Positions 8,908 to 49,812 of a stretch of DNA of 64,000 bases are shown in pieces. The stretch is from assembly GCA_020846435.1 (NCBI GenBank), contig JADLDY010000031.1:21557-85556 (forward strand), written 5' to 3'. The notes under the pieces were generated by a model. It did not search any database. It was not told the origin of the DNA and worked only from the letters and a program-made list of their open reading frames with translations. Numbering within the stretch: position 1 is the stretch's first letter; each line of letters begins with the position of its first letter. The DNA comes from Deltaproteobacteria bacterium (GTDB taxonomy: Bacteria; Desulfobacterota; GWC2-55-46). The position numbers and the translations under genes were made by a program.

Positions 8908-9030
8908 AAAAATTGCTCTTTTTCCCAATCTCTTTGTCAGGGCGGATGTAAAAATGCTCACATATTAGCGTATATGCTCCGCTTTTTACCTCCACCCTTC
9001 CTCGACCTTGGAAAAAATATCTAATTTTTA
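8908..9030 (+). repeat. Intergenic repeat family A, copy 1
   Basis: aaaattgctctttttcc...tgtcagggcg...aaaaatgctcacatat...atatgctccgcttttta...cctcgacc..ggaaaaaatatctaatttttagag. Nearly identical to the copies at 10634 and 49685. Confidence 0.6.
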
Positions 9031-9050
9031 GAGGCACGCAAAAAAACAAG

Positions 9051-10034
9051 ATGACAGACATCTACTCCCAGCAGAAGAGGAACAGGAGAATCACTTATTC
9101 CCTTATGCTGGGATTTTTTATTTTCGTCGTGGCCATCGGCCTCTCCGTCGATGTCTACACCTACGGCGATCTCAGCGCCATAGGGGCCGGAGGCTCTTTC
9201 AGGTTGCCTGTGGCGACGATCGCCGCCTTTGCCTTCGCCTCGATAAACGGCTTCACCTCTTATTTTTACGGCAGCTCTATCGTAATCAGGAGCCTTGGTG
9301 CTGAGGAGTTGAAATTCGAGGATCAGTCGCACAAGAGGTTTCGCAACACAGTCACCGAGATGGCCCTCGCCTCGGGCCTGCCCATGCCAAAGACCTATGT
9401 CATAGCTGACCCGGCCCCAAACGCCTTCGCTACCGGCAGGGACCCGGCCCATTCCGTCGTCGTCGTCACGCAGGGGCTACTCGATTCCATGACGAGGGAG
9501 GAGCTTCAGGCAGTCGTCGCCCACGAGATGGGACACATAAAGACATACGACATCCTCACCATGACGGTCGTGACGGTCCTTGTCGGCACGGTCTCCATAT
9601 TATCTGACTGGGCAATGCGCACCTGGAGATACGGCGGCATCAGGCCAAGGCGCAACATAAAGGACAAGGGCGGCATACACCCGCTGATACTGCTTTTCAT
9701 AGGCGTTTTTGTCCTTCTCTCCCCGATCTTCTCCAGGATAATAGCGATGTCCGTCTCCCGCAACAGGGAGTACGCGGCCGACGCTTCAGCCGCGCAGTTC
9801 ACGAGAAACCCGCTTGCTCTGGCGAGCGCGCTCAAAAAGATAGACGCCTTTACCTCGCCCTTGAAGAGCGCGAGGAGGGCGACCGCCCACCTCTTCATCT
9901 CAGACCCTTTGCACAGGAAGCTTGATGACAAGGAAGGCTTTGTGGCCGATGTCTTCTCAACCCACCCTCCCATCAAGGAGAGGATAAGGCGGCTCGAGGC
10001 GATGGGCTACGCGAAGGCCGGAGGGGCAGGGTAA
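9051..10034 (+). CDS. M48 family Zn metalloprotease (HtpX-like)
   Basis: HEMGH zinc-binding motif, several TM segments; common genomic partner of LemA. Confidence 0.8.
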   Translation: MTDIYSQQKRNRRITYSLMLGFFIFVVAIGLSVDVYTYGDLSAIGAGGSFRLPVATIAAFAFASINGFTSYFYGSSIVIRSLGAEELKFEDQSHKRFRNTVTEMALASGLPMPKTYVIADPAPNAFATGRDPAHSVVVVTQGLLDSMTREELQAVVAHEMGHIKTYDILTMTVVTVLVGTVSILSDWAMRTWRYGGIRPRRNIKDKGGIHPLILLFIGVFVLLSPIFSRIIAMSVSRNREYAADASAAQFTRNPLALASALKKIDAFTSPLKSARRATAHLFISDPLHRKLDDKEGFVADVFSTHPPIKERIRRLEAMGYAKAGGAG

Positions 10035-10036
10035 CC

Positions 10037-10630
10037 ATGACCGAAACCAGAAAACTCATATGCCCGGAATGCAACGGCCCACTTCACGAAGTATTCGCCG
10101 AGGCCAACTACGGCAGGGTATTGCTACTTGACCAGTGTAAGGTGTGCGGGGGCGTATGGTTCGACAGGTGGGAGCTGTACTTCGTGACCGACAGGTCGAT
10201 AAAGGACCTCGAAGCTCTTGACGCGGCCTCTTTTGCCGCCCGGAACCCTGTTGACGGCGGCAAGGGCCTTTGCCCGAGGTGTGAAAAGGAGCTCGCTGTC
10301 TTCATCGACCCTAATTTGCCAAAGGACGCGCTCATCGAGCGCTGTAAGGGCTGCAACGGGTTGTGGCTCAACAGGGGCGAGCTTAAAAGGTTCGCGGCCC
10401 ACAGAAAGACCTTCCGGGCGAGCCGTCCTGAATACAGCAATGCCGCCTCCGAGATTGGCGCGCTCAAAAACCTGCAGAAGGAATTGAAGCTCGGCAACCT
10501 GGCCGTGCCGACCACGCTGGAACTCGCGTCGAACCTGCAGAATGAACCTCCTGTAAACAGCAAGGAGGTCGCAAAAGACCTGGCCTTTCTTGCGCTCCAA
10601 TCCCTCGTGAGACTCGTCTTTAAATTCTGA
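10037..10630 (+). CDS. Tandem zinc-ribbon protein (two TFIIB-type zf repeats, PF13453-like)
   Basis: Two repeats of CPxC..x..C.xCGG(V/L)W(F/L)(D/N)R.EL. Confidence 0.6.
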   Translation: MTETRKLICPECNGPLHEVFAEANYGRVLLLDQCKVCGGVWFDRWELYFVTDRSIKDLEALDAASFAARNPVDGGKGLCPRCEKELAVFIDPNLPKDALIERCKGCNGLWLNRGELKRFAAHRKTFRASRPEYSNAASEIGALKNLQKELKLGNLAVPTTLELASNLQNEPPVNSKEVAKDLAFLALQSLVRLVFKF

Positions 10631-10633
10631 ACG

Positions 10634-10860
10634 AAAATTGCTCTTTTTCCTGACCTCTGTGTCAGGGCGTAAATAAAAATGCTCACATATTGTCATATAT
10701 GCTGCGCTTTTTATTTCCGCCCTTCCTTGATCTCAGAAAAAATAGCTAATTTTCAGGGCAGATTGAAGCTTTGTGCGTTGTAAAAATACTGTTAACGGAA
10801 CTTTTAAGCAACCCGCTGTAAAAATTACTATTTTCAGAGGCAGTTTGAAGCCTTTTGTGT
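10634..10860 (+). repeat. Intergenic repeat family A, copy 2, with about 65-bp tandem duplication of its 3' tail
   Basis: Core 10634-10760 matches copies 1 and 3. The tail ttttcag(g/a)gcag(a/t)ttgaagc..ttgtg.gtt.taaaaat.ctgt occurs twice in tandem. Confidence 0.55.
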
Positions 10861-10875
10861 TATAAAAATCCTGTC

Positions 10876-11235
10876 ATGACGGTCGCATTGTTCATAGCGT
10901 TGGGGCTTGCCGCGGGGCTCCTTTCCGGCCTCGTCGGTGTGGGCGGCGGCATAATCGTCGTGCCGGCTCTCGTCCTGTTTTTCGGCTTTACCCAGCACCA
11001 GGCCCAGGGCACGACCCTGGCCATGATGGTCCCTCCCATCGGCATACTCGCGGCCTGGGCGTACTACACTCAGGGCCATGTCGACATCAAGGCGGCAGGC
11101 CTTCTTTGCGCAGGGTTTGTTATCGGCGGGTATCTCGGCGGCAGGGCGGCGGTGTCGCTTTCGACCCCGGTCCTCACAAAGGCCTTCGGCGCCTTCCTCC
11201 TCCTCGTATCGCTCAAGATGCTTTTTTCCAAATAG
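10876..11235 (+). CDS. Half-size TauE/SafE (TSUP, DUF81) family membrane protein
   Basis: GLLSGLVGVGGGIIVVP motif typical of TSUP family; about 119 aa, 4 predicted TM. Confidence 0.6.
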   Translation: MTVALFIALGLAAGLLSGLVGVGGGIIVVPALVLFFGFTQHQAQGTTLAMMVPPIGILAAWAYYTQGHVDIKAAGLLCAGFVIGGYLGGRAAVSLSTPVLTKAFGAFLLLVSLKMLFSK

Positions 11236-11310
11236 GTTGCGTTCGGCCCCCCACACAATATATAATCTGTCCGGTTTCAGCAAACCCCCCTTACGAAAGG
11301 AGTTTGAAAG

Positions 11311-12066
11311 ATGAGATTCGGAAAATCTGTTTTAGCAGCGACTTTTGCCATAGGACTCTCCCTTGCCGCGTTCAACGCCAGCGCGAGCTCAGGCGCCCAT
11401 TGGGGCTATGAGGGCGAGCACGGCCCGGAGCACTGGGGCCACATGCAGGGCGAGTACAAGGCTTGTGCCGAGGGCAAGACCCAGTCGCCCATAGACTTGA
11501 CTGGCGCGGCTGTAGAGGACCTCGCGGACATTACCTTCGACTACAAGGCCTCCAAACTTAATGTCGTCAATAACGGCCACACCGTGCAGGTCAATTATGA
11601 CAGCGGCAGCTCGATATCGGTGAACGGCTCGCAGTACAATCTGGTGCAGTTCCATTTCCACACGCCCAGTGAGCACACGGTCAATGGCAAGTCCTTCGGC
11701 AACGAGATGCACCTCGTCCATAAGAACGACAAGGGCGAGCTGGCCGTCGTAGGTGTGCTCATAGACAAGGGCGCGGAGAACGCGGCTTACAAGGCCATCT
11801 GGTCGAACCTGCCGAAGAAGGCCAATGAGAAGAAATCGGTAGCCGTGGACATAAACGCTTCTGAACTCCTTCCCGTGGATAGGGAGTACTTCACCTACAT
11901 GGGCTCTCTTACGACCCCTCCGTGCAGCGAGAATGTCAGGTGGATAGTCCTCCAGAGCCCCATCCAGATGTCTGAAGGGCAGATAGCCGAGATACAAAAG
12001 ATTATGCACAAGAACAACAGGCCGGTCCAGAAGCTCCACGACAGGACCTTGAAGATGTCGAAGTAA
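11311..12066 (+). CDS. Alpha-class carbonic anhydrase, secreted (signal peptide)
   Basis: Signal peptide. QFHFHTPSEH zinc-ligand histidines and SLTTPPCSE are alpha-CA signatures. AAGGAG RBS. Confidence 0.9.
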   Translation: MRFGKSVLAATFAIGLSLAAFNASASSGAHWGYEGEHGPEHWGHMQGEYKACAEGKTQSPIDLTGAAVEDLADITFDYKASKLNVVNNGHTVQVNYDSGSSISVNGSQYNLVQFHFHTPSEHTVNGKSFGNEMHLVHKNDKGELAVVGVLIDKGAENAAYKAIWSNLPKKANEKKSVAVDINASELLPVDREYFTYMGSLTTPPCSENVRWIVLQSPIQMSEGQIAEIQKIMHKNNRPVQKLHDRTLKMSK

Positions 12067-12072
12067 GATTTT

Positions 12073-12110
12073 TATTTAAAAGCCCCTGCCGGAAGTTCCG
12101 GCAGGGGCTT
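12073..12110 (+). terminator. Rho-independent terminator after carbonic anhydrase
   Basis: gcccctgccggaagttccggcaggggc hairpin plus T8. Confidence 0.65.
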
Positions 12111-12178
12111 TTTTTTGTTTTTCTCAGTTGGCCCGTTCAGGTTAAAATAAGGGTAACTGAACCAGAGGGGTTTTCTAT

Positions 12179-12604
12179 ATGGACAGATCATTTCTTTTCG
12201 CAATTCTGGCGGCAGTCATCTGGGGCTTCGCGCCAGCCCTTGAAAAGTTCGGGCTCAAGGGGGCTGGCATGGACCCTTTTCTTGGCGTATTCATAAGAAC
12301 GATACCCATAGCCGTCTTCGCCATGCTCGGCGTCTTTTTTATGGGCAGGCTCGGCGAAGTGGCCTCGATAGACTTGAAGAGCGTACTCTTCGTCGCCGCG
12401 GGCGGCCTTGTAGCCGGACTCTTCGGCCAGTTGGCGTTCTATTCGGCGCTCAAATCAGGGGAGGCGTCCGTGGTGGTGCCTGTGGCGGCCACCTACCCGC
12501 TTGTCGCGCTCATCGTCTCGGTCCTTTTTCTGGGAGAGTCGTTCACGATGCAAAAGCTCGCTGGAATAGCGCTTGTCGTCGGAGGGGTCGCGCTCCTCAA
12601 GTAG
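12179..12604 (+). CDS. Small EamA/DMT-superfamily membrane transporter
   Basis: 141 aa, 4 TM, EamA-like pattern; 3' end overlaps the convergent M50 gene by 8 bp. Confidence 0.6.
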   Translation: MDRSFLFAILAAVIWGFAPALEKFGLKGAGMDPFLGVFIRTIPIAVFAMLGVFFMGRLGEVASIDLKSVLFVAAGGLVAGLFGQLAFYSALKSGEASVVVPVAATYPLVALIVSVLFLGESFTMQKLAGIALVVGGVALLK

Positions 12605-13736
12605 AAGGCTTCTTGAGGCCTCCCTTGAACTCGAGCAGGTGCAGTATGTCGCGCCTCGAGATTATGCCGACAAGCTCGCCCGAAGCTACGACAGGGAACT
12701 TGCCGAGGTTGTCTGCCTGGCCGGACATCATCTTTGCCAGAGCGTCCATTGCGTTGTCCTCCGGCGACATCGTGTCTTCAAGGTCGAGCTTGTGGGCCGC
12801 TTCGCCGACCGGCGTAGTTGGCCAGTCGTCCTTTTTTACTCCCCTGACATTGGTGAGGGTGAGGAGGCCAGTGAGCCGTCCGTCAGTCATCACGGGGAAA
12901 GCGGCATGATGGAATTTGAAGAAAAACTCTTCGACCGCGTCGGCTAAGCTCATCGAGCTCTTGATCGTTATGACAGGTTTTGACATGAGGTCTTTTACTT
13001 TAAGCCCTTCAAGAGCCTTTTTTATGACCACCTGCTGGTAGCCGCCTTCAGCGGCCTGCTGGACGAATACGCCGATGAAGACGAACCAGAGCCCTCCGAC
13101 GAAGTTCCCCATGAAGATCTGTATGAGCCCCATCGCTATGAGGAAAACGGCGAAGCCCTTGCCTATGGTGCTGGCTATCTTCGTCGCCCTGTCGATGTCG
13201 CCGGTCTTCATCCACCAGATGGCCCTGAATACCCTGCCGCCGTCGAGCGGAAAGCCGGGTATCATGTTGAAGGCAAGGAGCATGAAGTTTATGAAGGCGA
13301 GGTAGCTGAGGACAGATTTCAGCAGCGGGTAGGTTTCAGGGTCGATGGCGCGCGAGGCGCCGTAGAAAAGAGCCGCGAGGACGAGGCTCGCGATTGGCCC
13401 CGCTATGGCAATTTTGAGTTCAGTCGCTCCGTCCTCAGGCTCTTTTGTGAGGCGGGCCACACCGCCGAATATGAACAGTGTTATCTCGTGTATGTCCATG
13501 CCGAGCCTGTTCGCCGTATACGAGTGGGAGAGTTCGTGCGCGAGGACGCAGGCGAAGAGCAAAAGCGCGGAGATGATGCCCATGGCGAGGTAGGTTCCTG
13601 TGCCAAACCCGGGGTTTTTCATAGGGAAGTAGCCGTAGGCTAAAGACCAGGAAAAGAGCACCAGGACTATGAACCATGTATAATCAAGGGATATCTGTAT
13701 GCCGAGCAACTTGAAGAGTTTTATTCCTTTTGCCAT
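12597..13736 (-). CDS. Site-2 protease (M50 family) with tandem CBS domains
   Basis: HELSH (HExxH) and FPLDGG motifs in the TM core; C-terminal CBS pair. Confidence 0.85.
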   Translation of the reverse strand: MAKGIKLFKLLGIQISLDYTWFIVLVLFSWSLAYGYFPMKNPGFGTGTYLAMGIISALLLFACVLAHELSHSYTANRLGMDIHEITLFIFGGVARLTKEPEDGATELKIAIAGPIASLVLAALFYGASRAIDPETYPLLKSVLSYLAFINFMLLAFNMIPGFPLDGGRVFRAIWWMKTGDIDRATKIASTIGKGFAVFLIAMGLIQIFMGNFVGGLWFVFIGVFVQQAAEGGYQQVVIKKALEGLKVKDLMSKPVITIKSSMSLADAVEEFFFKFHHAAFPVMTDGRLTGLLTLTNVRGVKKDDWPTTPVGEAAHKLDLEDTMSPEDNAMDALAKMMSGQADNLGKFPVVASGELVGIISRRDILHLLEFKGGLKKPST

Positions 13737-13880
13737 CGCGTCCCGCCGCGTTGATTATTAGAGGTAAATCAAAGTGTTATAAGCCCTATGGTTCAAGTCT
13801 ATCAGATGGGGGATGGCGGCGCAAGGCGGCTTCCCTGCTTGTTTTTGGCCCGTCGAGGAGATAAAATCTCATTCGGCTGT

Positions 13881-16328: not shown

Positions 16329-16432
16329 CCAGGACTGCCTCAAGCTCTCTATTTGCGTCGAGGCAAAAGCGGCGCACAGGCAAAGTACGCCTCACTCCTT
16401 GACGCCTGGAAGCTGAGACTTTTTGAGCAGTC
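16329..16432. repeat. Intergenic repeat family B (copy R1)
   Basis: ...gcctcaagctc...aaaagcggcgcacaggcaaagtacgcctcactccttgacgcctgga.gctgagactttttgagc. Lies between convergent genes. Confidence 0.5.
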
Positions 16433-16470
16433 TTGAATGTTTGGATTTGTCAGCGGTCCTGTAATCCGCT

Positions 16471-17001: not shown

Positions 17002-17040
17002 TGCGAGCCTCCGTGCTTGGAGCGCTTCGTTTCCGGCTTA

Positions 17041-21261: not shown

Positions 21262-21271
21262 CCATTGCCTC

Positions 21272-25155: not shown

Positions 25156-25195
25156 TGGCGACTCCTTTGTTTAGATTCAGATTCGCTTGAGTCGA

Positions 25196-25322
25196 TCAGT
25201 CTGTTCAAAAAGCTCCATATGCAAGGCGTCGAGGAGCAAGGCGCGAGGCGTACTTTGCATGTACGTCGCAGAGGCGAGCTTTGATGCCAACGACGCAGAT
25301 GGACTTTTTGAGCGGACTGAAT
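25196..25322. repeat. Intergenic repeat family B (copy R5, inverted orientation)
   Basis: Reverse complement reads gctcaaaaagtccatctgcgtcgttggcatcaaagctc...gcaaagtacgcctcgcgccttgctcctcgacgccttgcatatggagctttttgaac. Confidence 0.5.
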
Positions 25323-28739: not shown

Positions 28740-30026
28740 ATGGAAAAGGCTCAGAGTCAACTGGACAGGTTCATCGTGACCGGGGAAGGCGGGGCGCTTG
28801 TGCCCTTCGCGCTCGCCGGCGCGGCTTCCGTTATTTTACTTGTCGTAGAGATGTATACGGGCGCGGCTCTCGTGAAGGCGCTCCTTCTGGCGGCCCTTGT
28901 CCTCGCGGCCGGCCTTGTCCCGGTCCATGTCTTCAGGCGCCGTTCAATCAGGCTCTCTGAAGTGGACAACGAGGAGATAATAAGGGAGCTTGCCGAAAGG
29001 ACGCGCCATTACACCTCCCGCAGGGAGAGGCTCGAGAGGTTTTTGAGCGCGCAGCATGAGGTGAACAGGCTGATAGACGGACACCTCAAGGACGTCATCG
29101 GCCAGACAGGGGAAGCCGCCTCGCGGATAATAGGCAAATCCCAGGACATTGACTCTTCGATGAACATGATGCGCTCGACCATAAACGCGCTCCAGAGACA
29201 GACCGAGGAGCTCGCCGAGTCGTCGAGCAGGACGATCGAGGACAACGAGAAGAGCATCAACGGCCTCAGGGACTACATAGACAAGAGAAGGGCCGACGTT
29301 GACAACGACTACAAGACAGTCCTCGCCCTTGCCGAGGACGCCAGATCCATGACAAGCCTCGTCGAGCTTTTAAAGGAGATAAGCGACCAGACGAACCTCC
29401 TTGCCCTGAACGCGGCGATAGAGGCCGCGCGGGCCGGAGAGCACGGCAGGGGATTCGCGATAGTGGCCGACGAGGTAAGAAAGCTATCGAAGCATTCAGA
29501 GCAGGCCGCAGGCAAGATAGGACAGGCAATGATACGGATGGCGGACGAGATAGAGGGCAAGTTCGCGTTGAAGCTCAACCAGGACAGGAACAGCCAGGAG
29601 TCGGGCCTCCTTGAGAGCCTCGAAGGCCAGCTCGAAAGCCTGGGGACGAGCTACCGCAGCCTCGACGGCCTCAACAGGCAGGTGCTCGACGAGGTAGGCT
29701 CTTCCAGCGAGAGGGTGGCCTCTGAAGTGCTCGAGCTCCTCGCCGGGGTGCAGTTTCAGGACATAGTCCGCCAGCAGGTCGAGCTCGTCATGAAGGCAGT
29801 GGACGAATGCGACGGGTTTGCGGCTTCTTTGCAGTCGTGCCTGAAGGACGAAAACCTCTGTACCGGGGAGTGCAGGATAACGGAGTTCGACCCCGAGGAC
29901 ATAAGGAAGCACTATGTAATGGAAAAGCAGAGGGAGACGCACGCGTCGGTAGTCGTGCCCTTTCCAGGCAGGCATGCCGCTCAGGAGACGAGGCAGGCCG
30001 CGAACAGCGAGATAACTTTCTTTTAA
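28740..30026 (+). CDS. Methyl-accepting chemotaxis protein, short form (membrane hairpin, no periplasmic domain)
   Basis: Two adjacent TM segments, then MA signalling domain with [39 protein letters not shown]-terminus ends EITFF. Confidence 0.8.
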
Positions 30027-33011: not shown

Positions 33012-34697
33012 ATGGATTTCTTAAGGAATCTCAAAACCCGGTCCAAGCTGTTTTTGAGTTTCACCGTGCTCATCGTTTTCGTGCTCGGGCTCGGAGTGCT
33101 CAGCATCAACAGGATAGGCGAGATGCGCTCCATGATTCAGACGCTCTACGCAGACAGGTTCGTCCCGGCGGTCGACCTTGGCAAGATAAACAACCATCTT
33201 GCCTTCATCAGGATAGGCGCCCTCCAGATAATGAACGAGACTGACAAGGTCAGGAAGCAGGAAATATGGAACAAGGCGGCCGAGTCTGCAGAGGAGACGG
33301 ACAAGCTCATAACCAAGTACGGCGCCACCGAGATGGTTGAAGAAGAGCAGAAGGTCTTCGACGCGCTCAAATCCTCCTGGGCGAGCTACAACGCTTCGCG
33401 CCTTGCGACCTACAAATTGGCGCTTGACGGCGAGAACGTGAAGGCCAAGGAGAACGCGATAACCGACGCAGGCCCCAAGTTCAAGGTCCTTGACGGGAAC
33501 GTGGTAAGGCTCATCGAGATACAGGACGAAGTGGGGCAGGCCCTCAACAAGGAAGCTGACAACGATTACGCCTTCACAAGGAACGTCGTCATAGCCGCAA
33601 CCGTGGTCTCTGTTGGCATAGGCGCCGCGCTCGCGCTCATCCTTACCACACTGATCGCCAGGCCTCTGGTCGAGGTGACGGGAGTCGCCAACAGGCTCGC
33701 CGATGGAGACCTCAGCGTGGACATCGACGCGAAGGGCAAGGACGAGATAGGCGAGCTCACCACCGCGTTCAAAAACATGGTCGGCAAGCTGCGCGAAGTC
33801 GTCTCTGACGTAAGGGCGGTCTCCGACAACGTCGCCTCAGGCGCGCAGGAATTGAGCTCAGGAGCCCAGCAGATCTCCCAGGGCGCGACCGAGCAGGCGG
33901 CCTCTATTGAGGAGACCTCCTCGTCGATGGAGCAGATGACCGCCAACATCAGGCAGAACTCGGACAACGCGCAGCAGACGGAAAAGATTGCGCATAAGTC
34001 CGCGACCGACGCCAAAGAGAGCGGCCAGGCCGTGACCGAGACGGTAGTCGCGATGAAGGAGATAGCTTCGAAGATATCCATAATAGAAGAGATAGCGAGG
34101 CAGACGAACCTCCTCGCCCTGAACGCCGCGATAGAGGCCGCGAGGGCCGGAGAGCACGGCAAGGGCTTCGCGGTTGTCGCTTCCGAAGTAAGAAAGCTCG
34201 CGGAAAGAAGCCAGACGGCTGCCGGAGAGATAAGCCACCTGTCAGCCTCCAGCGTGCAGATAGCCGAGAAGGCCGGAGAGATGCTCGCCAGGCTCGTCCC
34301 GGACATCCAGAAGACCTCAGAGCTCGTGCAGGAGATAACCGCGGCGAGCGCAGAGCAGAACTCAGGCGCCGACCAGATAAACAGGGCGCTCCAGCAGCTC
34401 GACCAGGTCATCCAGCAGAACGCCTCAGGCGCCGAAGAGCTCGCGTCTACCTCGGAAGAGCTCTCCGGGCAGTCTGAACAGCTCCAGAGGTCCATCGCCT
34501 TCTTCAGGGCCACGGGCGCTTCAGCTCCCGCCGCCAATGTAGTGCAAATAAACAGGGCGAAGCCCGCGCACAAGGCAAAACCGTCGCATCAGGCCCATCA
34601 GGCACGCAAGAGCGCGCCGCAGGCCGCGAACGGCGGGGTCGTCCTGAACCTCGGGACAGGCAGGGATGAAGAAGACGGCGAGTTCGTCAAATACTGA
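33012..34697 (+). CDS. Methyl-accepting chemotaxis protein with periplasmic four-helix-bundle sensor, HAMP
   Basis: TM1, about 150-aa helical periplasmic domain, TM2, HAMP, MA domain ([39 protein letters not shown]). Confidence 0.85.
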   Translation: MDFLRNLKTRSKLFLSFTVLIVFVLGLGVLSINRIGEMRSMIQTLYADRFVPAVDLGKINNHLAFIRIGALQIMNETDKVRKQEIWNKAAESAEETDKLITKYGATEMVEEEQKVFDALKSSWASYNASRLATYKLALDGENVKAKENAITDAGPKFKVLDGNVVRLIEIQDEVGQALNKEADNDYAFTRNVVIAATVVSVGIGAALALILTTLIARPLVEVTGVANRLADGDLSVDIDAKGKDEIGELTTAFKNMVGKLREVVSDVRAVSDNVASGAQELSSGAQQISQGATEQAASIEETSSSMEQMTANIRQNSDNAQQTEKIAHKSATDAKESGQAVTETVVAMKEIASKISIIEEIARQTNLLALNAAIEAARAGEHGKGFAVVASEVRKLAERSQTAAGEISHLSASSVQIAEKAGEMLARLVPDIQKTSELVQEITAASAEQNSGADQINRALQQLDQVIQQNASGAEELASTSEELSGQSEQLQRSIAFFRATGASAPAANVVQINRAKPAHKAKPSHQAHQARKSAPQAANGGVVLNLGTGRDEEDGEFVKY

Positions 34698-37440: not shown

Positions 37441-38498
37441 ACGCCAGAAAAAAGGTCCTCATAGTGGACGACTCGGCCGTTGTGCGCCGTGTCCTGACGA
37501 ACATCATCTCATCTGACGACGGGCTCGAGGTCATGGCGACCGCCTCTGACCCTTTCGTCGCGGCCGAGAAGATAGCTGCCGAGGTGCCGGATGTCATGAC
37601 GCTCGACATTGAGATGCCGAGGATGGACGGGCTTACCTTCCTCCAGAAGATAATGGAGCAGCACCCGATACCCGTCGTCATAATATCGAGCCTCGCTGGC
37701 AGCGGCACAGAGACGGCGATGAAGGCACTCGAGAGCGGGGCTGTCGAGATAATAGAGAAGCCGCAGTTAGGGACAAAGGAGTATCTGGAAGAGGCGTCGG
37801 TCTTCATCTGCGACGCTGTAAAGGCGGCTTCCCAGGTAAAGCCAAATCATGTGCGCCCCCCTTTGCCGGTGACTGCCAAGCTCACCGCCGACGCCGTTCT
37901 CCAGAAGAGCGGGGCTAAGGCCATGCTCAAGACGACCGAGAAGGTCATAGTCGTCGGGGCCTCTACCGGAGGGACAGAGGCGATAGCTGAGTTCCTCACA
38001 AACATGCCGCCTGATTCTCCCGGGATCGTCATCGTCCAGCACATGCCTGAGAGGTTTACAGCCGCCTTCGCGAAGAGGCTTGATTCGATATGCGCGATAT
38101 CGGTCAAGGAGGCCGAGGATAACGACACTGTCATAAGGGGGAGGGCGCTCATCGCCCCTGGCAACAGGCACATGCTCCTTAAAAGAAGCGGGGCGAGATA
38201 TTACGTCGAGATAAAAGACGGCCCGCTTGTCGCGCGCCACAGGCCTTCGGTAGACGTGCTCTTCCGTTCGGCGGCTTCCTACGCAGGCAAGAACGCCGTA
38301 GGAGTCATTTTGACCGGCATGGGGGACGACGGAGCGCTTGGCATGAAGGAGATGAAGGACGCCGGGGCAATAAACATCGCGCAGGACGAACATTCGTGCG
38401 TTGTGTACGGCATGCCTAAAGAGGCTATAAAGGCGGGCGGGGTGGATTTTGTGCTGCCGCTGAAGGCTATCTCCTCAAAAGTCCTCGCCGAGTGTTAG
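37437..38498 (+). CDS. cheB: Chemotaxis response regulator protein-glutamate methylesterase CheB
   Basis: N-terminal REC ([11 protein letters not shown]...D) plus CheB methylesterase ([18 protein letters not shown]). Confidence 0.9.
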
Positions 38499-38507
38499 CG
38501 GGCCTCT

Positions 38508-38722
38508 TTAAAAATCCCATCTGCTTTGTCGTCTTCGTCGCGGCAAAAGCGGCGTACAAAAAAGTACGCCTCACTCCTTGCTCCTCGTCTCCTCGCATCT
38601 GGAACTTTTAAAGAGGCCCGCCTGATGCTGATTTTATTGACGCCTGTCGTGTCAGAAAACCAATCTGCTTATGCAGTCAGCGTCGCGGTAAAAGCGGCGT
38701 ACAAAAGAGCACGCATCAGCTG
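38508..38722. repeat. Intergenic repeat family B (copy R2: one full unit plus a partial second unit)
   Basis: cccatctgctttgtcgtcttcgtcgcggcaaaagcggcgtacaaaaaagtacgcctcactccttgctcctcgtctcctcgcatctggaactttt..., then a second cgcggtaaaagcggcgtacaaaagagcacgc. Confidence 0.5.
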
Positions 38723-40837: not shown

Positions 40838-40842
40838 TAAGT

Positions 40843-41198
40843 TGGTGGAGGCGGTGGGAATCGAACCCACGTCCGGAAACGCTTACCCGTTTCTTCTACA
40901 TGCTTAGCCCGCAGATTTAGTCTCGCTCCCCTGCTCTCTGCAGGCAAGTTTCAGGAAAGCCAGTCCGGTTGTGTCTCGCCCCCAGGTCCTTCGGACAGAG
41001 CCCCGGGGGCCATCCTGCTTATTGTCGTCCTGCAAACCCCGCAGGAAAAGGTCTGCCGGACGCTGGCGGTTTCTTAGGCAGCCAGAGCGTATTCGTAGTC
41101 GTTGCCGACTGTGTTTGCCTACCTTTTTTTACGAGAAGATAGTTAACTCGGCATGCTTCACCCGGACTCAGACCGTCCCGTCGAAGCCAGTCGCCCCC
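40843..41198 (-). ncRNA. ssrA: tmRNA (transfer-messenger RNA)
   Basis: Minus strand starts GGGGGCGACUGGCUUCGACGGG and ends ...GGACGUGGGUUCGAUUCCCACCGCCUCCACCA (T-arm plus CCA). Internal ORF ends ...GNDYEYALAA-stop. Confidence 0.85.
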
Positions 41199-41283
41199 GA
41201 TTGTCAAAGAACTTCTTACCACAATCATTATAGCACAGGAGCCCTTGCCTGAAAAGCCCCTTTTGTCAGGCTCCCTCAGCCGT

Positions 41284-42180: not shown

Positions 42181-42282
42181 AGCTTAAATCGTAACATGAA
42201 AAAGGCCGGTTTATCAAGGAAGGACGGGCGAAAAAAGGCCCTGCCCAGGAACGGGGCAGGGCTTTTTGATGCGTTGGAAGCC

Positions 42283-44433
42283 TCAGGCGGCTTTTTTGCT
42301 CTTTTTGAGGTGAAGAACCTTTGTCTGGACAAGGCGGGCTTCTTCTGTCTGCCTGCCCGTAATCCTGAAGACCTCGACGGTCGCCTTGAGGTTTGTGGCG
42401 AGTTCGGCCATCTCCTGGCTCGCCTTCGCTATCTGCTGGGCGCTGGCTGATGTCTCGTTTATAACGTCAGCGACGGCAGATATGTCGCCGCTTATCTGCT
42501 CGGTGGCGGCGGACTGCTGTTCTGTCGCGGTAGTCACCTGGTGGACCATCGAGGTGACGACGTCGACCTTGTTGACTATCTCGCTCAAAGCATCCCCTGC
42601 TTCCTGTGCGAGCCTGACGCCCTTTTCAACTGCGTATACCTCTTCCTGCATCGAGGAGATGGCCTTGCCGGTCTCGTCCTGCATGGCCTTTATCATCTCG
42701 CCGATCTCCTTTGTCGCCATCATGGTCTTTTCTGCGAGTTTTCTTACCTCGTCGGCTACCACGGCGAATCCTCTGCCCTGCTCTCCGGCCCTTGCCGCCT
42801 CTATCGCCGCGTTCAAGGCAAGCAGGTTGGTCTGGTCGGCGATGTCGTCTATGACGTTCACTATGTTGCCAATCTGGTTTGAGCGTTCGCCGAGGGCCGA
42901 GATTATCGCGCTCGATTCCTTCGCGGTTCCGGCTATCCCGTGCATCGAGGTTATGGTCTCGGAGACTATGCGCCCGCCCTTTACGGCAACAGAGCTTGCT
43001 TCCCTGGCGGCGTCGGCCGCGCTCGAGACGTTCCTGGCGACCTCGATGATCGTCGCGCTCATCTCCTGGGTCGCGGTCGAGACCTGTGCGGCCCTCGAGC
43101 TCTGCGACTGCGAGCCTCCAGCTATCTGCACAGCGGAGGCCGAGAGCTCCTCAGAGGACGACGCGAGGTGCTCGATCGACGAGTGAAGGTCTTTCACTAT
43201 GCCGTGGAATTTGCCTATCATGCTGTTGAAGGACGATGCCATCTGGCCGTTCTCGTCCTTGGAGGCCACATCGATCGAGAGTGTGAGGTCGTTGGTTTTT
43301 TCTATGTTGGACATGGCCTCGTTCATGCGCGTGAGAGGCTGTACGACCTTGCTGCTTACCACGATCATGCTGAATATGCCGAGGCCGATGATCGCGAGCG
43401 TGAAGACGAAGGCGATGACCATGTTGCGTTTGGAAGCCGCGAGGTCAGCCATCACGGGCGCGTCGACCATGGCTCCGACCGCCGCCGAGACCGCAAGGAT
43501 CGAGTCTATGGCCTCTGAGCTCTTCTCTATCCACTCCTTGCCTGTGATCGGGTACTGTCCTGTCGAGGCGGCTTCCATCACGGATTTGCGCACCGCTTCA
43601 AAGCTGCCCAGGTATATCGACTCCATCTTCGAGAGGGCTTCGAGCACCTCCCTGTTGATGCCGTTCATGTTCTTGACGCGAAGGACGGGCTTTAAGTTTA
43701 TATCGACTACCGCCTTGAATGTGTTGAGCTTCTGCATGCCTTCCGCGTCGACTGGCGTGCCGGACGAGACGAACTTGGCGAGCGCGGCCCGCTCCCTTCC
43801 GGCGTACTCGCTCACGAGCCACAGGGCCTGCTTGAGCTCGAGGTTCATGCGCAGCGCCTGCTGGTTCGTATCCTTGCTGGCGCTGGAGGAGAAGGCCGCG
43901 AGCCTTGTTTCGGAAGCGGCGTCGATAAGCGTTGTCGTGAACTTTATCCATTCCTGCGGAGAGTAGCTCTTCTGGGCTTTTTCAACTTCGTTGTCGACGG
44001 TGCGCCTGAGCGTCGTGAGCTCTCCCTGGAGCCGTTCAAGCTCCCTTACGGAGGAGTTGAAAAGCTTGTTCTCATTGTCAGTCTCCTGAAATTCTTTTGA
44101 GAGCTCGAAGGACTTCTTGAGGGATTCGTCAAGTCTGGAGCGTACGTCCTGGATCTTCTGGAGCAGCGTCCCTTCGGCAGGCTTGTCTGAGGAAAGGGCG
44201 GTCGCTGTAAATCCTCTTTCCTTGGCCGCGAACCCGGCGGCGGCTAACAGGTTGTCTGCCAACTCGTTGGCTATGTCGACCCTGCCGGTCTCCTTGTAGC
44301 TGCGCCATGTGTCGAGCGCGATCGATGCTGACAGCCCAGCCAGAACCAGCACGAGCGTGCCGATAACCGCCAGCATGAAATTCCTGATGCTGATTCGCTG
44401 CAAAAAACGCATAGAACCTCCTGAGTAGTGCAT
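42283..44433 (-). CDS. Methyl-accepting chemotaxis protein with large (about 300 aa) periplasmic sensor domain
   Basis: TM1, periplasmic domain, TM2, HAMP, MA domain ([39 protein letters not shown]). Confidence 0.85.
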
Positions 44434-44607
44434 AACTTTTATTGCGGGGATAAATTGATTATCGGCCTTAAAGGGCCGGACTTTAGCCCTTTGTCCAAAA
44501 AACGGCTTGAGTTCATCTTGAGTGCCGCTTGATGCCCTGGCATGTCAAACAGGCTTGAATTGAGCCGCCGCCGTGATAAACTCTCTTCAAAACACGGCAG
44601 GGTGAAG

Positions 44608-45942
44608 ATGGAAGGGAAACGAAAAGGGGCGAGACAGACGGCTTTCAATGTCTTGAACAGGGTCGAAGGCGGCGACGCGTTCGCCGACATCCTGCTGATG
44701 AAAGAGACAGAGGGGCTCTCAGCTCTCGACGCGGGGCTTTCAACCGAGATCGTCTACGGCGTTCTCAGGTGGAAGATGAGGCTCGACAACGCGATAGACC
44801 TCTTCGCCTCCATCAGGACGAAAAAGCTCGAGCACAGGGTTCTGAACGCTTTGAGGATAGGGACCTACCAGCTGCTTTTTCTAGACAGGGTCCCTTCTTC
44901 AGCGGCGATAAACGAATCAGTTAAGCTTCTGAGGAAGGACGGGGCCAGGAAATCGGGCTTTGTAAACGCTCTCTTGCGCAAGATAGACTCTGAGAGGCCG
45001 TCCGTCCGTCTTCCAGAGGACGCGGCCCCTGAAAAGCGGATCTCCGTCGAGTTCTCTCACCCTGAATGGCTCGTCAGGAGGTGGGCCTTGAGGTACGGGC
45101 TCGCTGAGGCTGAGGCGCTCTGCAAAGCCAACCAGGAGCCGCCCCCAAGGGTCGTCCGGGTAAACACCCTCGTGACTGCGAGGACCGAACTCATGGAATC
45201 TCTCGCGGCCGCGGGCTTCAAGGCCGCCGCGTCGGTATATTCACCTTTTGCCGTAGAGGTCATTGGCGGCGGGCCGCTTGACGCTCTTGACAGGAGGTAT
45301 TACATACAGGACGAAGCCTCCCAGCTCGTATCAACGCTTCTTTCGCCTGAGCCGGGCTCGAAGGTGCTCGACGCGTGCTCCGCGCCGGGCGGCAAGACCA
45401 CTCACCTTGCCCAGCTCATGGAAAACAGGGGCTCCATCCTGGCCCTCGACAAGAGCATCTCAAGGCTCAAGTCGGTTGAGAGCACGGCCTTGAGGCTCGG
45501 GGTGGGTATAATCAGGACTGAGGCCGTAGACGCGTCTTCCCCTCTTGCCTTTGCGAAAGAAGGTTCCTTTGATTACATCCTCGTTGACGCGCCCTGTACG
45601 GGCCTCGGGGTCGTGCGCAGGTCGCCGGACATAAAATACAGGAGAAGGGAAGATGATATCGCCTCTGCCGCCCTCATCCAGAGCGCGCTCCTTATGAACC
45701 TTTCCTGTTACCTGAAAAAAGGCGGAGTCCTCGTCTATTCGACATGCACCTTCGAGCCTGAGGAGACTGAGGAGGTCGTAGGCGGCTTTCTCGAAAGAAA
45801 CCCGGGTTTTTGCCTCGAGGACGCGGCAAAAGCGCTGCCAGACGGGTGCGCCCCGCTCGTCGATGAAAAGGGTTTTTTCAGGCCCCTCCCGCATAAACAT
45901 GGAATGGACGGATTTTTCGGCGCGAGGCTGAGAAAGCTTTGA
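44608..45942 (+). CDS. rsmB: 16S rRNA (cytosine967-C5)-methyltransferase RsmB (NusB-like N-domain plus Fmu MTase)
   Basis: NusB-like N-terminus, FDYILVDAPCTGLGV and conserved catalytic Cys (TC motif: VLVYSTCTF). Confidence 0.8.
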   Translation: MEGKRKGARQTAFNVLNRVEGGDAFADILLMKETEGLSALDAGLSTEIVYGVLRWKMRLDNAIDLFASIRTKKLEHRVLNALRIGTYQLLFLDRVPSSAAINESVKLLRKDGARKSGFVNALLRKIDSERPSVRLPEDAAPEKRISVEFSHPEWLVRRWALRYGLAEAEALCKANQEPPPRVVRVNTLVTARTELMESLAAAGFKAAASVYSPFAVEVIGGGPLDALDRRYYIQDEASQLVSTLLSPEPGSKVLDACSAPGGKTTHLAQLMENRGSILALDKSISRLKSVESTALRLGVGIIRTEAVDASSPLAFAKEGSFDYILVDAPCTGLGVVRRSPDIKYRRREDDIASAALIQSALLMNLSCYLKKGGVLVYSTCTFEPEETEEVVGGFLERNPGFCLEDAAKALPDGCAPLVDEKGFFRPLPHKHGMDGFFGARLRKL

Positions 45943-45993
45943 GAGAGGGCGGATTTTCCTGGGATTCAGCGGGCTGTCAACGGAGCGTCAAAG

Positions 45994-46536
45994 TCAGTCC
46001 GGGATTATCCTGAACGAGGAGAAGAAGTTGTCGAAGTCGGCTGCGTGCTGCTTGAAATAGATGCGCATCGGCGCCGAGTAGCTTACGCCATAGTACAGCT
46101 CTTCGGTCATGAAGCCGTAGTAGGTGAAGCCGTAATCAAGCCCGTCGTTGTTCTCGTAAGTCCCGTCCATTTTGAATCCCTGGTAGCCGAGTATCTGCCC
46201 CGTTGACAGGTCTTTCACCTTGAGCCCGGTCATGCGTTTGTCGAGGGCGTTGTTCTCGAGGAAGTATTCGGCCATCTCGATGCCCTTCATGCCGGCGTGC
46301 AGCGGCTTTCGCGATAATATGAGCGGCTTGCCGAGCGGCTGCGTCTGGATGAAGATGTACTGGAGCTCAGGGCCGTTCTTCGTGAGGAACAGGTCTGAGT
46401 TTGACCTGTTCATGAACCAGCCGTCCGGAAGGACGACCGAGTAATGCCTGCTCCTGTCCTCGTACAGCCCGCTCGACGGCGTCCAGGCGGCGCACCCGGG
46501 CGCTATGAGCGCGAGGAAGAGAAGCGGCGCTGTCAA
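45994..46536 (-). CDS. Hypothetical lipoprotein/secreted protein
   Basis: Hydrophobic N-terminus with APGC; no recognisable domain; start codon uncertain (TTG in ORF track). Confidence 0.4.
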   Translation of the reverse strand: MTAPLLFLALIAPGCAAWTPSSGLYEDRSRHYSVVLPDGWFMNRSNSDLFLTKNGPELQYIFIQTQPLGKPLILSRKPLHAGMKGIEMAEYFLENNALDKRMTGLKVKDLSTGQILGYQGFKMDGTYENNDGLDYGFTYYGFMTEELYYGVSYSAPMRIYFKQHAADFDNFFSSFRIIPD

Positions 46537-46559
46537 AAGCCTGCCGGAGAAAAGGCGTC

Positions 46560-47258
46560 TTAACGAGGAAAGCGCGATAGGAGCCCCCTTATGAGCCTTC
46601 TGGTGTTTTCCCTGTCCATGAAGTTCTCTCTCAAGCTCACTGATTCATCCCTGAAGCTCGCCCATATTATATTTCCGCTGTGGTCTGACATGGAGACGCA
46701 GGCCCTTGACCTGTTCTGCCTGGGGAGCGCCGAGGGGCCGTAGAGCGTGCCTACCGCGAAGGTGGCCAGTTTTTTTGACAGAGGCGCTTTTTCCCTCTTA
46801 TGCACTTCGAAGCCGTCCATGAAGATGAACGCCTCTACGCCGTATAGATCCGCGAGAGTCTCGAGGCTGCCCAACGACGGCGGCGCGGTCTTTTCAACCG
46901 GGTTCCAGAACTCCTGCAGATGCTTGTGCACAGCCTTGCTCAGGGCCCGCACCTCCTGGAGCTCCTTCCTTGACTTCAGTGTCGGCTCTATGAGCTTCAC
47001 CCTGAGGCGGGTGCCCTTGAAAAACGCGGCTATCTCGTCAGCCGAGCTCCTGGCGGCCGCATCCGAGACCTCGTTCATGACGGCTACTCCGTCTTCCGTG
47101 AGTTCAAATATTTTTATGTCAGGCTGGACGATGCCGATGGTCCTTATCGACCCTATCTGCTCGGCCGCGTCGTGCACGGAATAGTGCGCTGGAGCGCACC
47201 CTCCGGCGAGCAGCAGGACAACGGCTATGAGGAATGTCTTGAAGGCTCTCGATGGCAT
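46560..47258 (-). CDS. Hypothetical lipoprotein
   Basis: Signal peptide FLIAVVLLLAGGCAP (lipobox-like LAGGC); no recognisable domain. Confidence 0.4.
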   Translation of the reverse strand: MPSRAFKTFLIAVVLLLAGGCAPAHYSVHDAAEQIGSIRTIGIVQPDIKIFELTEDGVAVMNEVSDAAARSSADEIAAFFKGTRLRVKLIEPTLKSRKELQEVRALSKAVHKHLQEFWNPVEKTAPPSLGSLETLADLYGVEAFIFMDGFEVHKREKAPLSKKLATFAVGTLYGPSALPRQNRSRACVSMSDHSGNIIWASFRDESVSLRENFMDRENTRRLIRGLLSRFPR

Positions 47259-47262
47259 ATTT

Positions 47263-47874
47263 TTAAAATATCCCGGAGGAAGGGATCTCGCCCTCCCTTA
47301 TAAGTACGAGCTTTTCGCCGGTAGCGTCCACGATGGTCGAGCCTTTTTTGCTTTCGAGAGAGCCGCCGTCGATGAGCGCACCAATGGAGCCGTTGAAGTA
47401 TTCTATCACCTCTTCGGCAGAGACCGCGGGCTTTTCCCCTGACGGGTTGGCGCTCGTCGAAGTTATCGGGAAGCCGAGAGTATTGGAAAACCTTCTCGCG
47501 TTGGGACAGCCGGGCAGCCTTACGCCTATCGTCCCGGTGCCTGCCGTGACAGAATCTGGCAGCGAGTCAGCCGCCTTGAGCACGATCGTAAGAGGGCCGG
47601 GCCAGAAACGTTTCATGAGCTGTACAGCTTGAGGCGGCAGTTCCTTCGCGACGAAGCGGATCATCGAGATGCCGCCTATTATGAGCGGCATCGGGCTCGA
47701 TGAAGGCCTTCCCTTGAGCCTGTAGAGCGCTTGTACCGCGTCAGCGTTGAACGGGTTTACGCACAGGCCGTAGAATGTCTCGGTCGGGTAAGCGATTATG
47801 CCGCCAGCCATGAATATCTCAATGGCGGGCAGATAGTCGGCGTCAGCGTCGATTATGAGCGGTCCGTCATTCAA
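47263..47874 (-). CDS. tsaC: L-threonylcarbamoyladenylate synthase (YrdC/Sua5 family)
   Basis: YrdC fold motifs (AYPTETFYGL, PGPLTIVL, STSANPSG). Confidence 0.85.
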   Translation of the reverse strand: MNDGPLIIDADADYLPAIEIFMAGGIIAYPTETFYGLCVNPFNADAVQALYRLKGRPSSSPMPLIIGGISMIRFVAKELPPQAVQLMKRFWPGPLTIVLKAADSLPDSVTAGTGTIGVRLPGCPNARRFSNTLGFPITSTSANPSGEKPAVSAEEVIEYFNGSIGALIDGGSLESKKGSTIVDATGEKLVLIREGEIPSSGIF

Positions 47875-47875
47875 T

Positions 47876-48376
47876 TCAGGCCTTCAGTTTCTCCGCTTTG
47901 GCCTCGACCTGAGAGGCCATCTCTTTGCGGTGGGTCTTCAAAGCCTCGCGGAGCTTTGGGTCGGACACGGCCAGTATCTGGGCCGCGAAAATCCCGGCGT
48001 TCTTTGCCCCGGCCTTGCCTATGGCCATTGACGCGACAGGTACTCCTCCGGGCATCTGCACGGTTGAAAGGAGAGAGTCCAGTCCGTTCAACGGGCTTGA
48101 GTCGATGGGTACGCCTATGATTGGCAGGGTCGTCTCAGCGGCTATGAAACCCGCGAGGTGGGCGGCGCTCCCTGCTCCGGCTATTATCACCCTTATGCCG
48201 CGGCCTTCCGCGCTCTGCGCGTACTCGGAGGTCCTCTTGGGGGTCCTGTGCGCCGAGGAGACGGTCATCTCGTAGGGTATTCCGAAGTCTTTCAATATTT
48301 TCGCGGCTTCTTCCATCACGGGGAGGTCAGAGTCGCTCCCCATCAATATGCCAACAAGCGGTTTCTCAGACATCAT
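47876..48376 (-). CDS. purE: N5-carboxyaminoimidazole ribonucleotide mutase
   Basis: [18 protein letters not shown](A)G motifs. Confidence 0.9.
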
Positions 48377-48403
48377 TTCCTCCGGCTATTAATTCATCAT
48401 GCC

Positions 48404-49672
48404 CTATTTCAGGGCTTTCTTCCCTATGTCTGTCCTGTACTGCGCGCCTTCCCAGGAGATCTTATCGACAGCCCTGTAGGCGTTCTCAATGGCTTTTCTT
48501 ATGTCTGCCCCGAGGGCCGTTACTCCGAGGACCCTGCCGCCTGAGGTCACGACCTTGCCGTCGCGGCTCTTTGTGCCAGCGTGGAAGACAACGGTGTCAG
48601 GCAGGAGGGCGGCTTCATTCAGGCCTTTTATCTCGCTTCCCTTGAGATAATCTCCGGGGTAGCCTTTTGCCGCCATGACGACGCAGACTGCCGCTTCTTT
48701 TTTCCATTCAAGAGTAACTTCATGGAGGTTGCCTCTGGCAGAGGCCAGGAGCGCTTCCAGAAGGTCGGAAGCGAGCCTCATTAGTATGGGCTGTGTCTCC
48801 GGGTCACCGAACCTGCAGTTGAACTCCAATACTTTAGGCCCGGCGTCTGTCATCATGAGCCCGGCGTAGAGTATTCCTTTGTAGGGCCTGCCCTCTTTTT
48901 CCATGCCGCGGACGGCCGGGTACATGACCGTTTCCATGACCTCTTTTTGCAGCTCTCCGGTCAGGACCGGGGCAGGCGAATATGCGCCCATGCCGCCAGT
49001 GTTCGGCCCTTTGTCATTGTCGAATATTGCCTTGTGGTCCTGCGCTGGCGCGAGCGGCAGCACGGTCTTGCCGTCGGTGATGGCGAGGAAAGAAGCCTCT
49101 TCGCCGATGAGGAACTCTTCTATTATTATTTTTTTTCCGGCGGAGCCGAAGGCCTTCTCGGTCATGATGAGATCGACAGCCTCGAGAGCTTCCTGCCTCG
49201 TCTGGCAGATGACGACTCCCTTGCCGGCCGCCAGGCCGTCAGCCTTGACTACCATCGGCGGCTTGTGCGTCTCGATATAAGCCTTTGCCTCGGAGGCGTC
49301 CTCGAACTTCTTGTAAAAAGCCGTCGGGATGTTGTGGCGGTACATCAGCTCCTTGCTGAAGGCCTTGCTGCCCTCGAGCTCGGCCCCGGCCTTTGACGGG
49401 CCGAAGACAAGGAGGCCCGCGGCGGCGAAAACGTCGACTATGCCGAGGGTCAAAGGCAGCTCGGGGCCGACGACCGTGAAGTCTATTTTTTCGGCCAGAG
49501 CAAAGGCTTTCAACTCTTCTATCTCTTCGGCCGCGATGTTGATATTCTCGCCGTGCATGGCGGTGCCTGGATTGCCAGGCGCGATGAAGAGCTTCGTTAT
49601 CTTTTTACTCTGGGAAAGCTTCCATGCGAGGGCGTGCTCCCTGCCTCCGCCGCCGACTATCAGTACCTTCAT
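48404..49672 (-). CDS. purD: Phosphoribosylamine--glycine ligase
   Basis: MKVLIVGGGGREHALAWKL N-terminus, ATP-grasp. Confidence 0.9.
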   Translation of the reverse strand: MKVLIVGGGGREHALAWKLSQSKKITKLFIAPGNPGTAMHGENINIAAEEIEELKAFALAEKIDFTVVGPELPLTLGIVDVFAAAGLLVFGPSKAGAELEGSKAFSKELMYRHNIPTAFYKKFEDASEAKAYIETHKPPMVVKADGLAAGKGVVICQTRQEALEAVDLIMTEKAFGSAGKKIIIEEFLIGEEASFLAITDGKTVLPLAPAQDHKAIFDNDKGPNTGGMGAYSPAPVLTGELQKEVMETVMYPAVRGMEKEGRPYKGILYAGLMMTDAGPKVLEFNCRFGDPETQPILMRLASDLLEALLASARGNLHEVTLEWKKEAAVCVVMAAKGYPGDYLKGSEIKGLNEAALLPDTVVFHAGTKSRDGKVVTSGGRVLGVTALGADIRKAIENAYRAVDKISWEGAQYRTDIGKKALK

Positions 49673-49684
49673 TACGGCTCCTTG

Positions 49685-49812
49685 AAAAATTGCTCTTTTT
49701 CCCGATCTCTTCGTTAGGGCGGAAGTTAAAAATGCTCACATATAAATATATATGCTCCGCTTTTTACTTCCACCCTGCCTCGACCTCGGAAAAAATATCT
49801 AATTTTTAGAGC
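49685..49812 (+). repeat. Intergenic repeat family A, copy 3
   Basis: aaaattgctctttttcccgatctcttcgttagggcggaagttaaaaatgctcacatataaatatatatgctccgctttttacttccaccctgcctcgacctcggaaaaaatatctaatttttagag. Sits between purH and purD, antisense to them. Confidence 0.6.

Follow-up and report, generated by a model that had tools for sequence, protein, structure and literature searches.

ERIC (IRU) sequences of Enterobacteriaceae and Vibrio are noncoding imperfect palindromes of about 127-150 bp, each able to form one long hairpin, that lie in intergenic transcribed DNA in or near operons, in either orientation, and are bounded by a short target-site duplication (TSD). The Correia (NEMIS) elements of Neisseria, together with RUP and Nezha, are miniature inverted-repeat transposable elements (MITEs) related to IS630; they are 100-160 bp long with terminal repeats of about 20-26 nt and 2-bp duplications, and they occur in hundreds of copies near genes, where they are co-transcribed and form hairpins. 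REP sequences and REPINs are palindromic repeats that depend for their copying on a RAYT (HUH tyrosine) transposase, encoded by a single-copy gene, and that persist by vertical inheritance over long periods; HUH/Y1 transposition leaves no target duplication. Here we describe family A, a repeat present in three copies in a 64,000-nucleotide stretch of DNA, hereafter the window, from a Deltaproteobacteria bacterium of the Desulfobacterota lineage GWC2-55-46 (assembly GCA_020846435.1, contig JADLDY010000031.1, positions 21,557 to 85,556 of the forward strand). We assign a probability of about 0.85 to the interpretation that these repeats derive from a MITE, a non-autonomous cut-and-paste DNA transposon of 144 bp when intact, and are old copies of it with degraded ends.

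Family A resembles ERIC in its size, its hairpin palindrome, its lack of coding sequence, its location in intergenic spacers in or beside operons in either orientation, and its short duplication. The likeness is one of features, no relationship in sequence having been seen, the host clade differs, and ERIC duplicates TA, whereas TA makes up 12 of the 40 duplications found here. The choice of target also separates family A from Correia, RUP and Nezha, with which it shares its length, terminal repeats and 2-bp duplications: those elements duplicate TA, whereas family A often duplicates TG, AA, TC, GT or other dinucleotides, and it has neither equivalents of a promoter or IHF site nor a partner insertion sequence (IS) that we could find. 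Like the REP and REPIN populations, it consists of hairpin repeats that are long-lived at orthologous sites and seemingly maintained there rather than decaying; unlike the RAYT-dependent REPINs, which have neither long terminal repeats nor a duplication, it has both, and no RAYT was seen. Family A is an ordinary kind of element and a new MITE family, and what is unusual about it is its conservation at old orthologous sites.

Results

A dispersed family in one groundwater lineage

A repeat search of the window found a single family with three copies of 123 nt, all on the + strand (8909-9031, 10634-10756 and 49687-49809); the other two copies are 84% and 76% identical, ungapped, to the reference copy. 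The preliminary description, which was made by reading the sequence, had reported three near-identical repeats of about 125 bp, and the repeat search, an alignment and a profile hidden Markov model (HMM) all bear this out. The motifs it quoted are invariant in the three-way alignment, and the core 15-mer AAAATGCTCACATAT occurs three times in the window against 0.71 occurrences expected by chance. The inverted match that it noticed between the ends of the copies is also real, and belongs to a larger imperfect palindrome spanning the whole unit. Its bounds hold for the core of the repeat but fall short of the full extent of a 144-bp element, for which the better limits are those in Table 1. When the family profile HMM was run on the window, it returned the three copies and one relic, and no others.

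For a census of copies, one genome per species was scanned with the pattern GCTCTTTTTCC-N18-36-AAATGCTCAC, and at least 115 stretches matched. Eleven matches in unrelated taxa are due to chance, none of them being recognised by a profile built from the three copies in the window; a weak profile match (E 8e-6) in L037, an Alistipes contig, was set aside as chance. The remaining matches come from about 18 species-level metagenome-assembled genomes (MAGs) of one groundwater lineage, labelled 'Deltaproteobacteria bacterium' (GWA2_54_12, GWB2_55_19, NC_groundwater_*), 'uncultured Thermodesulfobacteriota', BACT1 and DP16D_bin.2. A profile search of the window and the 115 matched loci yielded at least 133 non-overlapping copies, at least 121 of them full length and at least 54 in GWA2_54_12 alone. 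The window is distinct from the matched genomes and shares synteny with GWA2_54_12, the nucleotide identity being about 81-85%. Whether the family has further copies, or is conserved in relatives, had been left by the preliminary description to a genome-wide census, and it clearly is both multicopy and conserved. A blastn comparison of the consensus with plasmids returned just short AT-rich chance matches, and a full-text literature search for the sequence motifs of the element returned nothing relevant.

Anatomy of the intact element

Alignment of the 121 full-length copies with their flanks gives the consensus AGG(C/G)T(A/G)CCTCTAAAAATTGCTC ... AATTTTTAGAGGCA(G/C)CCT, beyond which conservation ends abruptly. 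The terminal inverted repeats (TIRs), AGGSTRCCTCTAAAAATT and AATTTTTAGAGGCASCCT, are both kept, with at most two substitutions per end, in 68 copies, and 33 of these 68 have the modal length of 144 bp. A direct duplication of 2 bp flanks 40 of 67 independent copies, compared with a mean of 10.2 and a maximum of 19 in 2000 shuffles, and the same 67 copies give no signal for a duplication of 3, 4 or 5 bp. Both the TIRs and the target duplication that the preliminary description proposed to look for are therefore present. The 40 duplicated dinucleotides are TA (12), TG (8), AA (6) and TT, GA and TC (3 each), with GT, AT and CA also represented. The insertion sites share a preference for T at -3 (50/67) and A at +3 (52/67), so that the target is roughly T|TN|A; a 3-bp TNA or 4-bp TTAA duplication was ruled out because the match exists in the 2-bp register only.

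The element is poorer in G+C than its surroundings (34%, vs 57% for the window) and is strongly palindromic. Each window copy is predicted to fold into one long imperfect hairpin as RNA (z -2.9 to -7.6), with the minus-strand RNA being the more stable (-46 to -50 kcal/mol), and, as DNA, the 144-nt consensus is predicted to pair over its full length (-29 kcal/mol, z -7.5). A check of the stem for covariation, also proposed earlier, had a mixed outcome: some compensatory pairs exist (U-A 64 / C-G 36; A-U 100 / G-C 12) and fit a constraint on the hairpin, but they track a few subfamilies, and matched terminal repeats would yield them anyway. The element is without coding capacity. A 25-codon open reading frame (ORF) starting at the invariant ATGCTCAC, the only ATG-initiated frame, was considered and rejected; an in-frame TAG interrupts it in copy 1, and in other copies it is broken by indels in the loop.

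Evidence of movement

An exact pair of empty and filled sites records an insertion. Where the window has a single GT, the sister genome NC_groundwater_375 (L115:1540-1681) has GT, the 144-bp element and GT again, and the flanks of the two align to the base, right up to the element ends AGG...CCT. Further empty sites were found among orthologous lemA/M48/Zn-ribbon/tauE loci that we drew from metagenomes by means of the M48 protein. The spacer between lemA and the M48 gene measures 9-30 nt in L118-L124 (64-88% M48 identity), which corresponds to an empty site, and the spacer between the Zn-ribbon gene and tauE is element-free, at 27-40 nt, in L119-L123 (64-82% M48 identity). In L118, the locus with 88% M48 identity, the lemA/M48 site is empty, and a decayed, internally deleted ortholog of copy 2 occupies the Zn-ribbon/tauE site. 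The carriers among the fetched M48 loci are thus the window, GWA2_54_12 and, for copy 2 only, L118.

Insertion has also occurred into family A itself. One family-A copy is interrupted, at L067:1735-1878, by a nested hairpin element of another kind (ends GGAAGCTCTGATTAATTC ... GAATTAATCAGAGGTTCC) that has TTAG on both sides, and this points to at least one further MITE family, with a 4-bp duplication, having been active in the clade. Other family-A copies are internally deleted or in tandem. At L080:1949-2360, three copies lie head to tail at a spacing of about 140 nt with identical junctions (TGCTACTCTAAATGAGAATTGCTC); in this array a truncated copy has been amplified locally, in tandem.

Conservation of orthologous copies

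Each of the three window copies is orthologous to a copy at the same site in GWA2_54_12. The three element pairs are identical at 338 of 365 positions (92.6%), compared with 878 of 1648 (53.3%) four-fold degenerate sites in 11 flanking orthologous genes of the same two genomes (Fisher p = 4e-52), and the identity of the elements is still about 91% when the 21 positions fixed by the search pattern are left out. Over their length, eight further orthologous spacers show identities of 16-83% (51% when pooled). The gap between 92.6% and 53.3% indicates that the retained copies are constrained, whether by selection or by gene conversion. Private features are common to the orthologs, including truncated ends and the 1-nt insertion and loop sequence of copy 3, which speaks against separate insertions in the two genomes, and against gene conversion having fully homogenised the copies. 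Non-orthologous copies can match as closely as orthologs, and identity within genomes (88.7%) is barely above that between genomes (86.6%), with a mean identity to the consensus of 91%.

Genomic context and expression signals

Nearly all copies (128/132) are intergenic. They sit in short spacers, often internal to operons and in either orientation: of the 94 copies between co-directional genes, 51 are sense and 43 antisense, and copies lie a median of 15 nt from a stop codon and 37 nt from a start codon. The genes bracketed by or adjoining copies have housekeeping roles, and include those for phosphofructokinase (PFK), FabH/FabD, PAPS reductase and TonB. Promoter and terminator scans found no site inside the window copies, the only match nearby being a terminator-like stem at 10836-10855, in the tail that follows copy 2. 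Matches to sigma-70, extended -10, sigma-54 and IHF motifs noted when the consensus was inspected by eye are weak and not conserved, and were discounted. A comparison with Rfam (Rfam 15) found no match in the window at gathering score save a transfer-messenger RNA (tmRNA), and no match to copy 1 at E<=10.

The copies in the window

The positions of the window copies and of the features that adjoin them are collected in Table 1.

Table 1. Family-A copies, derivatives and the empty target site in the window
Feature	Position	Strand	Remarks
Copy 1	8907..9040	+	Between lemA stop (8903) and M48 protease start (9051); HMM positions 10-147, E 1e-42
Copy 2	10634..10764	+	Begins 4 nt past Zn-ribbon gene stop (10630); HMM E 6e-44
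Imperfect tandem duplication	10738..10874	+	Units 10738-10792 and 10820-10874, each comprising element 3' end and ancestral Zn-ribbon/tauE spacer
Relic of the 3' end of a second element (GTAAAAATTACTATTTTCAGAGGCAGTTT), the 'tail'	10814..10848	+	Weak HMM match, model positions 113-148
Copy 3	49674..49819	+	Whole purH(-)/purD(-) spacer, antisense to both genes; HMM E 3.5e-42
Empty target site, single GT	57149..57150	.	Alignment to filled site in L115

The preliminary description had placed copies 1 and 2 upstream of + strand start codons and around an M48 protease/Zn-ribbon gene pair, which is correct: the neighbours are GreA, LemA, M48, Zn-ribbon, a short TauE and carbonic anhydrase. In copy 1 the outer 5' terminal repeat is short by about 10 nt and the 3' terminal repeat AGAGGCACgc is kept; its ortholog in GWA2_54_12 (L106:7682) still has the complete 5' repeat AGGGTGCCTCT. 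Copy 2 has lost its outer 5' repeat, which is missing in both genomes (GWA2_54_12 ortholog, L049:1402), and its 3' repeat is degraded (TTTTCAGGGCAGATT). The tandem-duplicated tail described for copy 2 is likewise real, the two units being 55 nt long, 76% identical and spaced by 82; the repeat search saw it and Tandem Repeats Finder missed it. The counterpart of the relic at the same place in GWA2_54_12 is a mini-element that has an internal deletion but keeps its two terminal repeats. Just downstream, the TauE-family ORF at 10855-11235 encodes about 120-126 aa in the window and in GWA2_54_12, or about half of the Pfam model. An extended -10-like motif, TGTG(G/T)TATAA, is conserved upstream of tauE in relatives (L118, L119-L123) and is duplicated in the window.

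Copy 3 does lie between purH and purD in antisense orientation, as had been said, and it fills the whole spacer (purD encodes GARS and purH AICARFT/IMPCHase). Both of its terminal repeats are degraded, and what was once the 5' terminal repeat now includes AAGGAG, the ribosome-binding site of purD (reverse complement of 49679-49684). The GWA2_54_12 ortholog (L060:2134) is 95% identical and shares with copy 3 its degraded ends and its private insertion of 1 nt.

Discussion

A MITE was one of several possibilities offered by the preliminary description, and it is the one that the analysis bears out: the TIRs, the 2-bp TSD, the spread of at least 133 dispersed copies over about 18 genomes, the empty and filled sites and the nested insertion are all features of such an element. 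In the mechanism that we propose, a DDE-type transposase acting in trans would move the element, cutting with a 2-bp stagger at T|TN|A-like targets. After insertion, a copy would be co-transcribed with its neighbours and could form a stable hairpin from either strand.

Several observations weigh against this interpretation or call for caution in reading the numbers behind it. No autonomous partner with matching terminal repeats and no transposase or RAYT gene turned up in about 0.8 Mb of DNA from the clade, nor did any within-genome paralog above 60% identity or any multicopy ORF; matches to the terminal repeats alone, which we considered as a parent element, proved to belong to deletion derivatives or to copies that a nested insertion had split. 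TA accounts for just 12 of the 40 matching duplications, so that the usual IS630/Tc1-mariner source of bacterial hairpin MITEs is not a neat fit. The copy-2 ortholog in L118 has decayed, which means that the constraint on retained copies is not universal, and the strong conservation of old copies is itself unlike what would be predicted for a purely selfish, decaying MITE. Because capture required exact matches to two 10-11-nt blocks, the apparent conservation of the family in these blocks is inflated, and the context statistics depend on genes called by a codon-score heuristic of our own.

With regard to the source of the transposase, IS630/Tc1-mariner transposons in general duplicate TA, and the IS5/ISL2/Harbinger (PHIS) group makes duplications of 0-4 bp (PMC10045372). 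A MITE derived from IS630/Tc1-mariner is disfavoured, since strict TA duplication is not seen: 28/40 duplications are non-TA, and the exact empty site is GT. PHIS MITEs could accommodate a relaxed 2-bp duplication at T-rich or A-rich targets, and a PHIS origin is possible as a lead only, no transposase having been found. IS200/IS605-type elements, which have subterminal hairpins and neither terminal repeats nor a duplication, were set aside because both are present here.

It is the age and similarity of the retained copies that a MITE origin leaves to be explained. Mobile repeats in bacteria are expected to decay or be purged, and the copies described here, which predate a species split, are about 93% identical. 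We suggest, tentatively, that in this uncultivated groundwater lineage the family may have turned into a population of cis-elements that is inherited vertically and kept by selection, analogous to REPINs but derived from a transposon; its operon-internal hairpins, fixed in sequence, would then have a putative RNA-level or protein-binding function. Maintenance by the host would explain an identity of 93% between orthologs where neutral sites are saturated. One conceivable role resembles that of REP or ERIC, with an operon-internal RNA hairpin affecting mRNA decay, processing, read-through or attenuation; alternatively, the element may offer a protein-binding site, for which the blocks AAAAATTGCTC and AAAAATGCTC are candidates. 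The RNA hairpin appears the likeliest of these putative host roles. If host selection does operate, family A would be a second genome-wide domesticated repeat population beside REP/REPIN and would offer a test of the function of operon-internal hairpins.

A MITE without host function could also show this pattern if its old copies were kept alike by concerted evolution, through gene conversion between its dispersed copies, which number more than 100. All copies are close to the consensus and, for copies 1 and 2, a non-orthologous GWA2_54_12 copy is closer (94-95%) than the ortholog (89-93%), as conversion would predict. Yet orthologs keep private variants that conversion should erase, such as identically truncated ends and, in copy 3, an additional T and the sequence of the loop, and subfamilies coexist within genomes and recur between genomes instead of being homogenised in each. 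The invariant blocks, moreover, measure 15-20 nt, which is short for RecA-dependent conversion. We therefore regard this explanation as doubtful, and purifying selection as a likelier cause of the constraint on retained copies than partial gene conversion. Membership of the REP/REPIN class, in which a RAYT would copy the repeats and long vertical inheritance would preserve them, appears improbable. It would account for hairpin-forming intergenic repeats in either orientation and in tandem clusters, for their persistence at orthologous sites with high conservation, and for copies that are hardly more alike within genomes than between them, a picture resembling the long-lived REPIN populations already described (bioRxiv 10.1101/2021.07.10.451892, PMC8049555). 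It would not account for long TIRs with a 2-bp target duplication of variable sequence, or for a unit of 144 bp with 20-nt terminal repeats where REP units measure 25-35 nt, and no RAYT-like gene stands beside clustered copies, the copy-flanked genes being those for PFK, FabD, a Tim44-like protein and similar products.

The two other possibilities raised in the preliminary description gained no support. A multicopy family of small or structured RNA genes, each copy its own transcription unit with a product acting in trans, would be in keeping with the strong sequence conservation, internal loops included, with a predicted fold that is stable and, in the window copies, more so for the minus strand, and with the few compensatory pairs. 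Against this stand the lack of an Rfam match and of promoter- or terminator-like sites inside copies in our scans, as well as terminal repeats, target duplications and empty sites, which are features of transposons; the covariation, being confined to a few subfamilies and expected of paired terminal repeats in any case, does little to help, and we consider such a gene family very improbable. Least credible is a mobile promoter or 5' untranslated region (UTR) cassette that drives or regulates the downstream gene. Such a cassette would explain why copies 1 and 2 lie upstream of + strand starts and why the purD ribosome-binding site falls within the end of copy 3. The near-even orientation (51:43) and the distances to neighbouring genes, with copies on the stop side as often as on the start side, nevertheless rule out a directional promoter or UTR cassette and fit insertion into spacers in random orientation. 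No sigma-70-like site exists within the copies, and the extended -10-like motif at tauE is a feature of the ancestral spacer and was not brought in by the element.

For annotation, our findings suggest that stretches of this kind should be labelled as MITE copies and not as small RNA genes or promoters. The copies break assemblies and may mislead gene-start calls. They also show that this lineage packs hairpins into its operons, among them lemA-M48, purH-purD and fabH-fabD.

Other repeats and features

Two GWA2_54_12 spacers, L106:5071-5402 and L060:683-854, are 170-330 nt long, compared with 27-59 nt in the window (6405-6463 and 48377-48403), and one of them holds a G+C-rich palindrome (CCCCGTAACAGGGCGGAGCG...GCCCTGTTAC). 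Such differences in length suggest that other repeat families, too, are polymorphic for insertions.

The window also contains a second, G+C-richer repeat family, present in both orientations at 25197-25309, 60594-60707, 61444-61517, 38561-38609 and 16351-16433, and further at 2789-2841, 38494-38536 and 61522-61561. One copy (25190-25315) is predicted to form a long hairpin (DNA -26 kcal/mol, z -2.8), and the family is probably another MITE- or REP-like family of the same genome. A separate set of repeats at 29371-29485, 34084-34219 and 42716-42852 (inverted), 115-137 nt long and 76-83% identical, has no fold (z -0.8); it was considered as a MITE and rejected since, judging by this and by a translation made by eye, it is probably paralogous coding sequence of chemoreceptor type. 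The tmRNA gene lies on the minus strand at 40843-41198 (Rfam, 184.9 bits) and has the tag peptide GNDYEYALAA.

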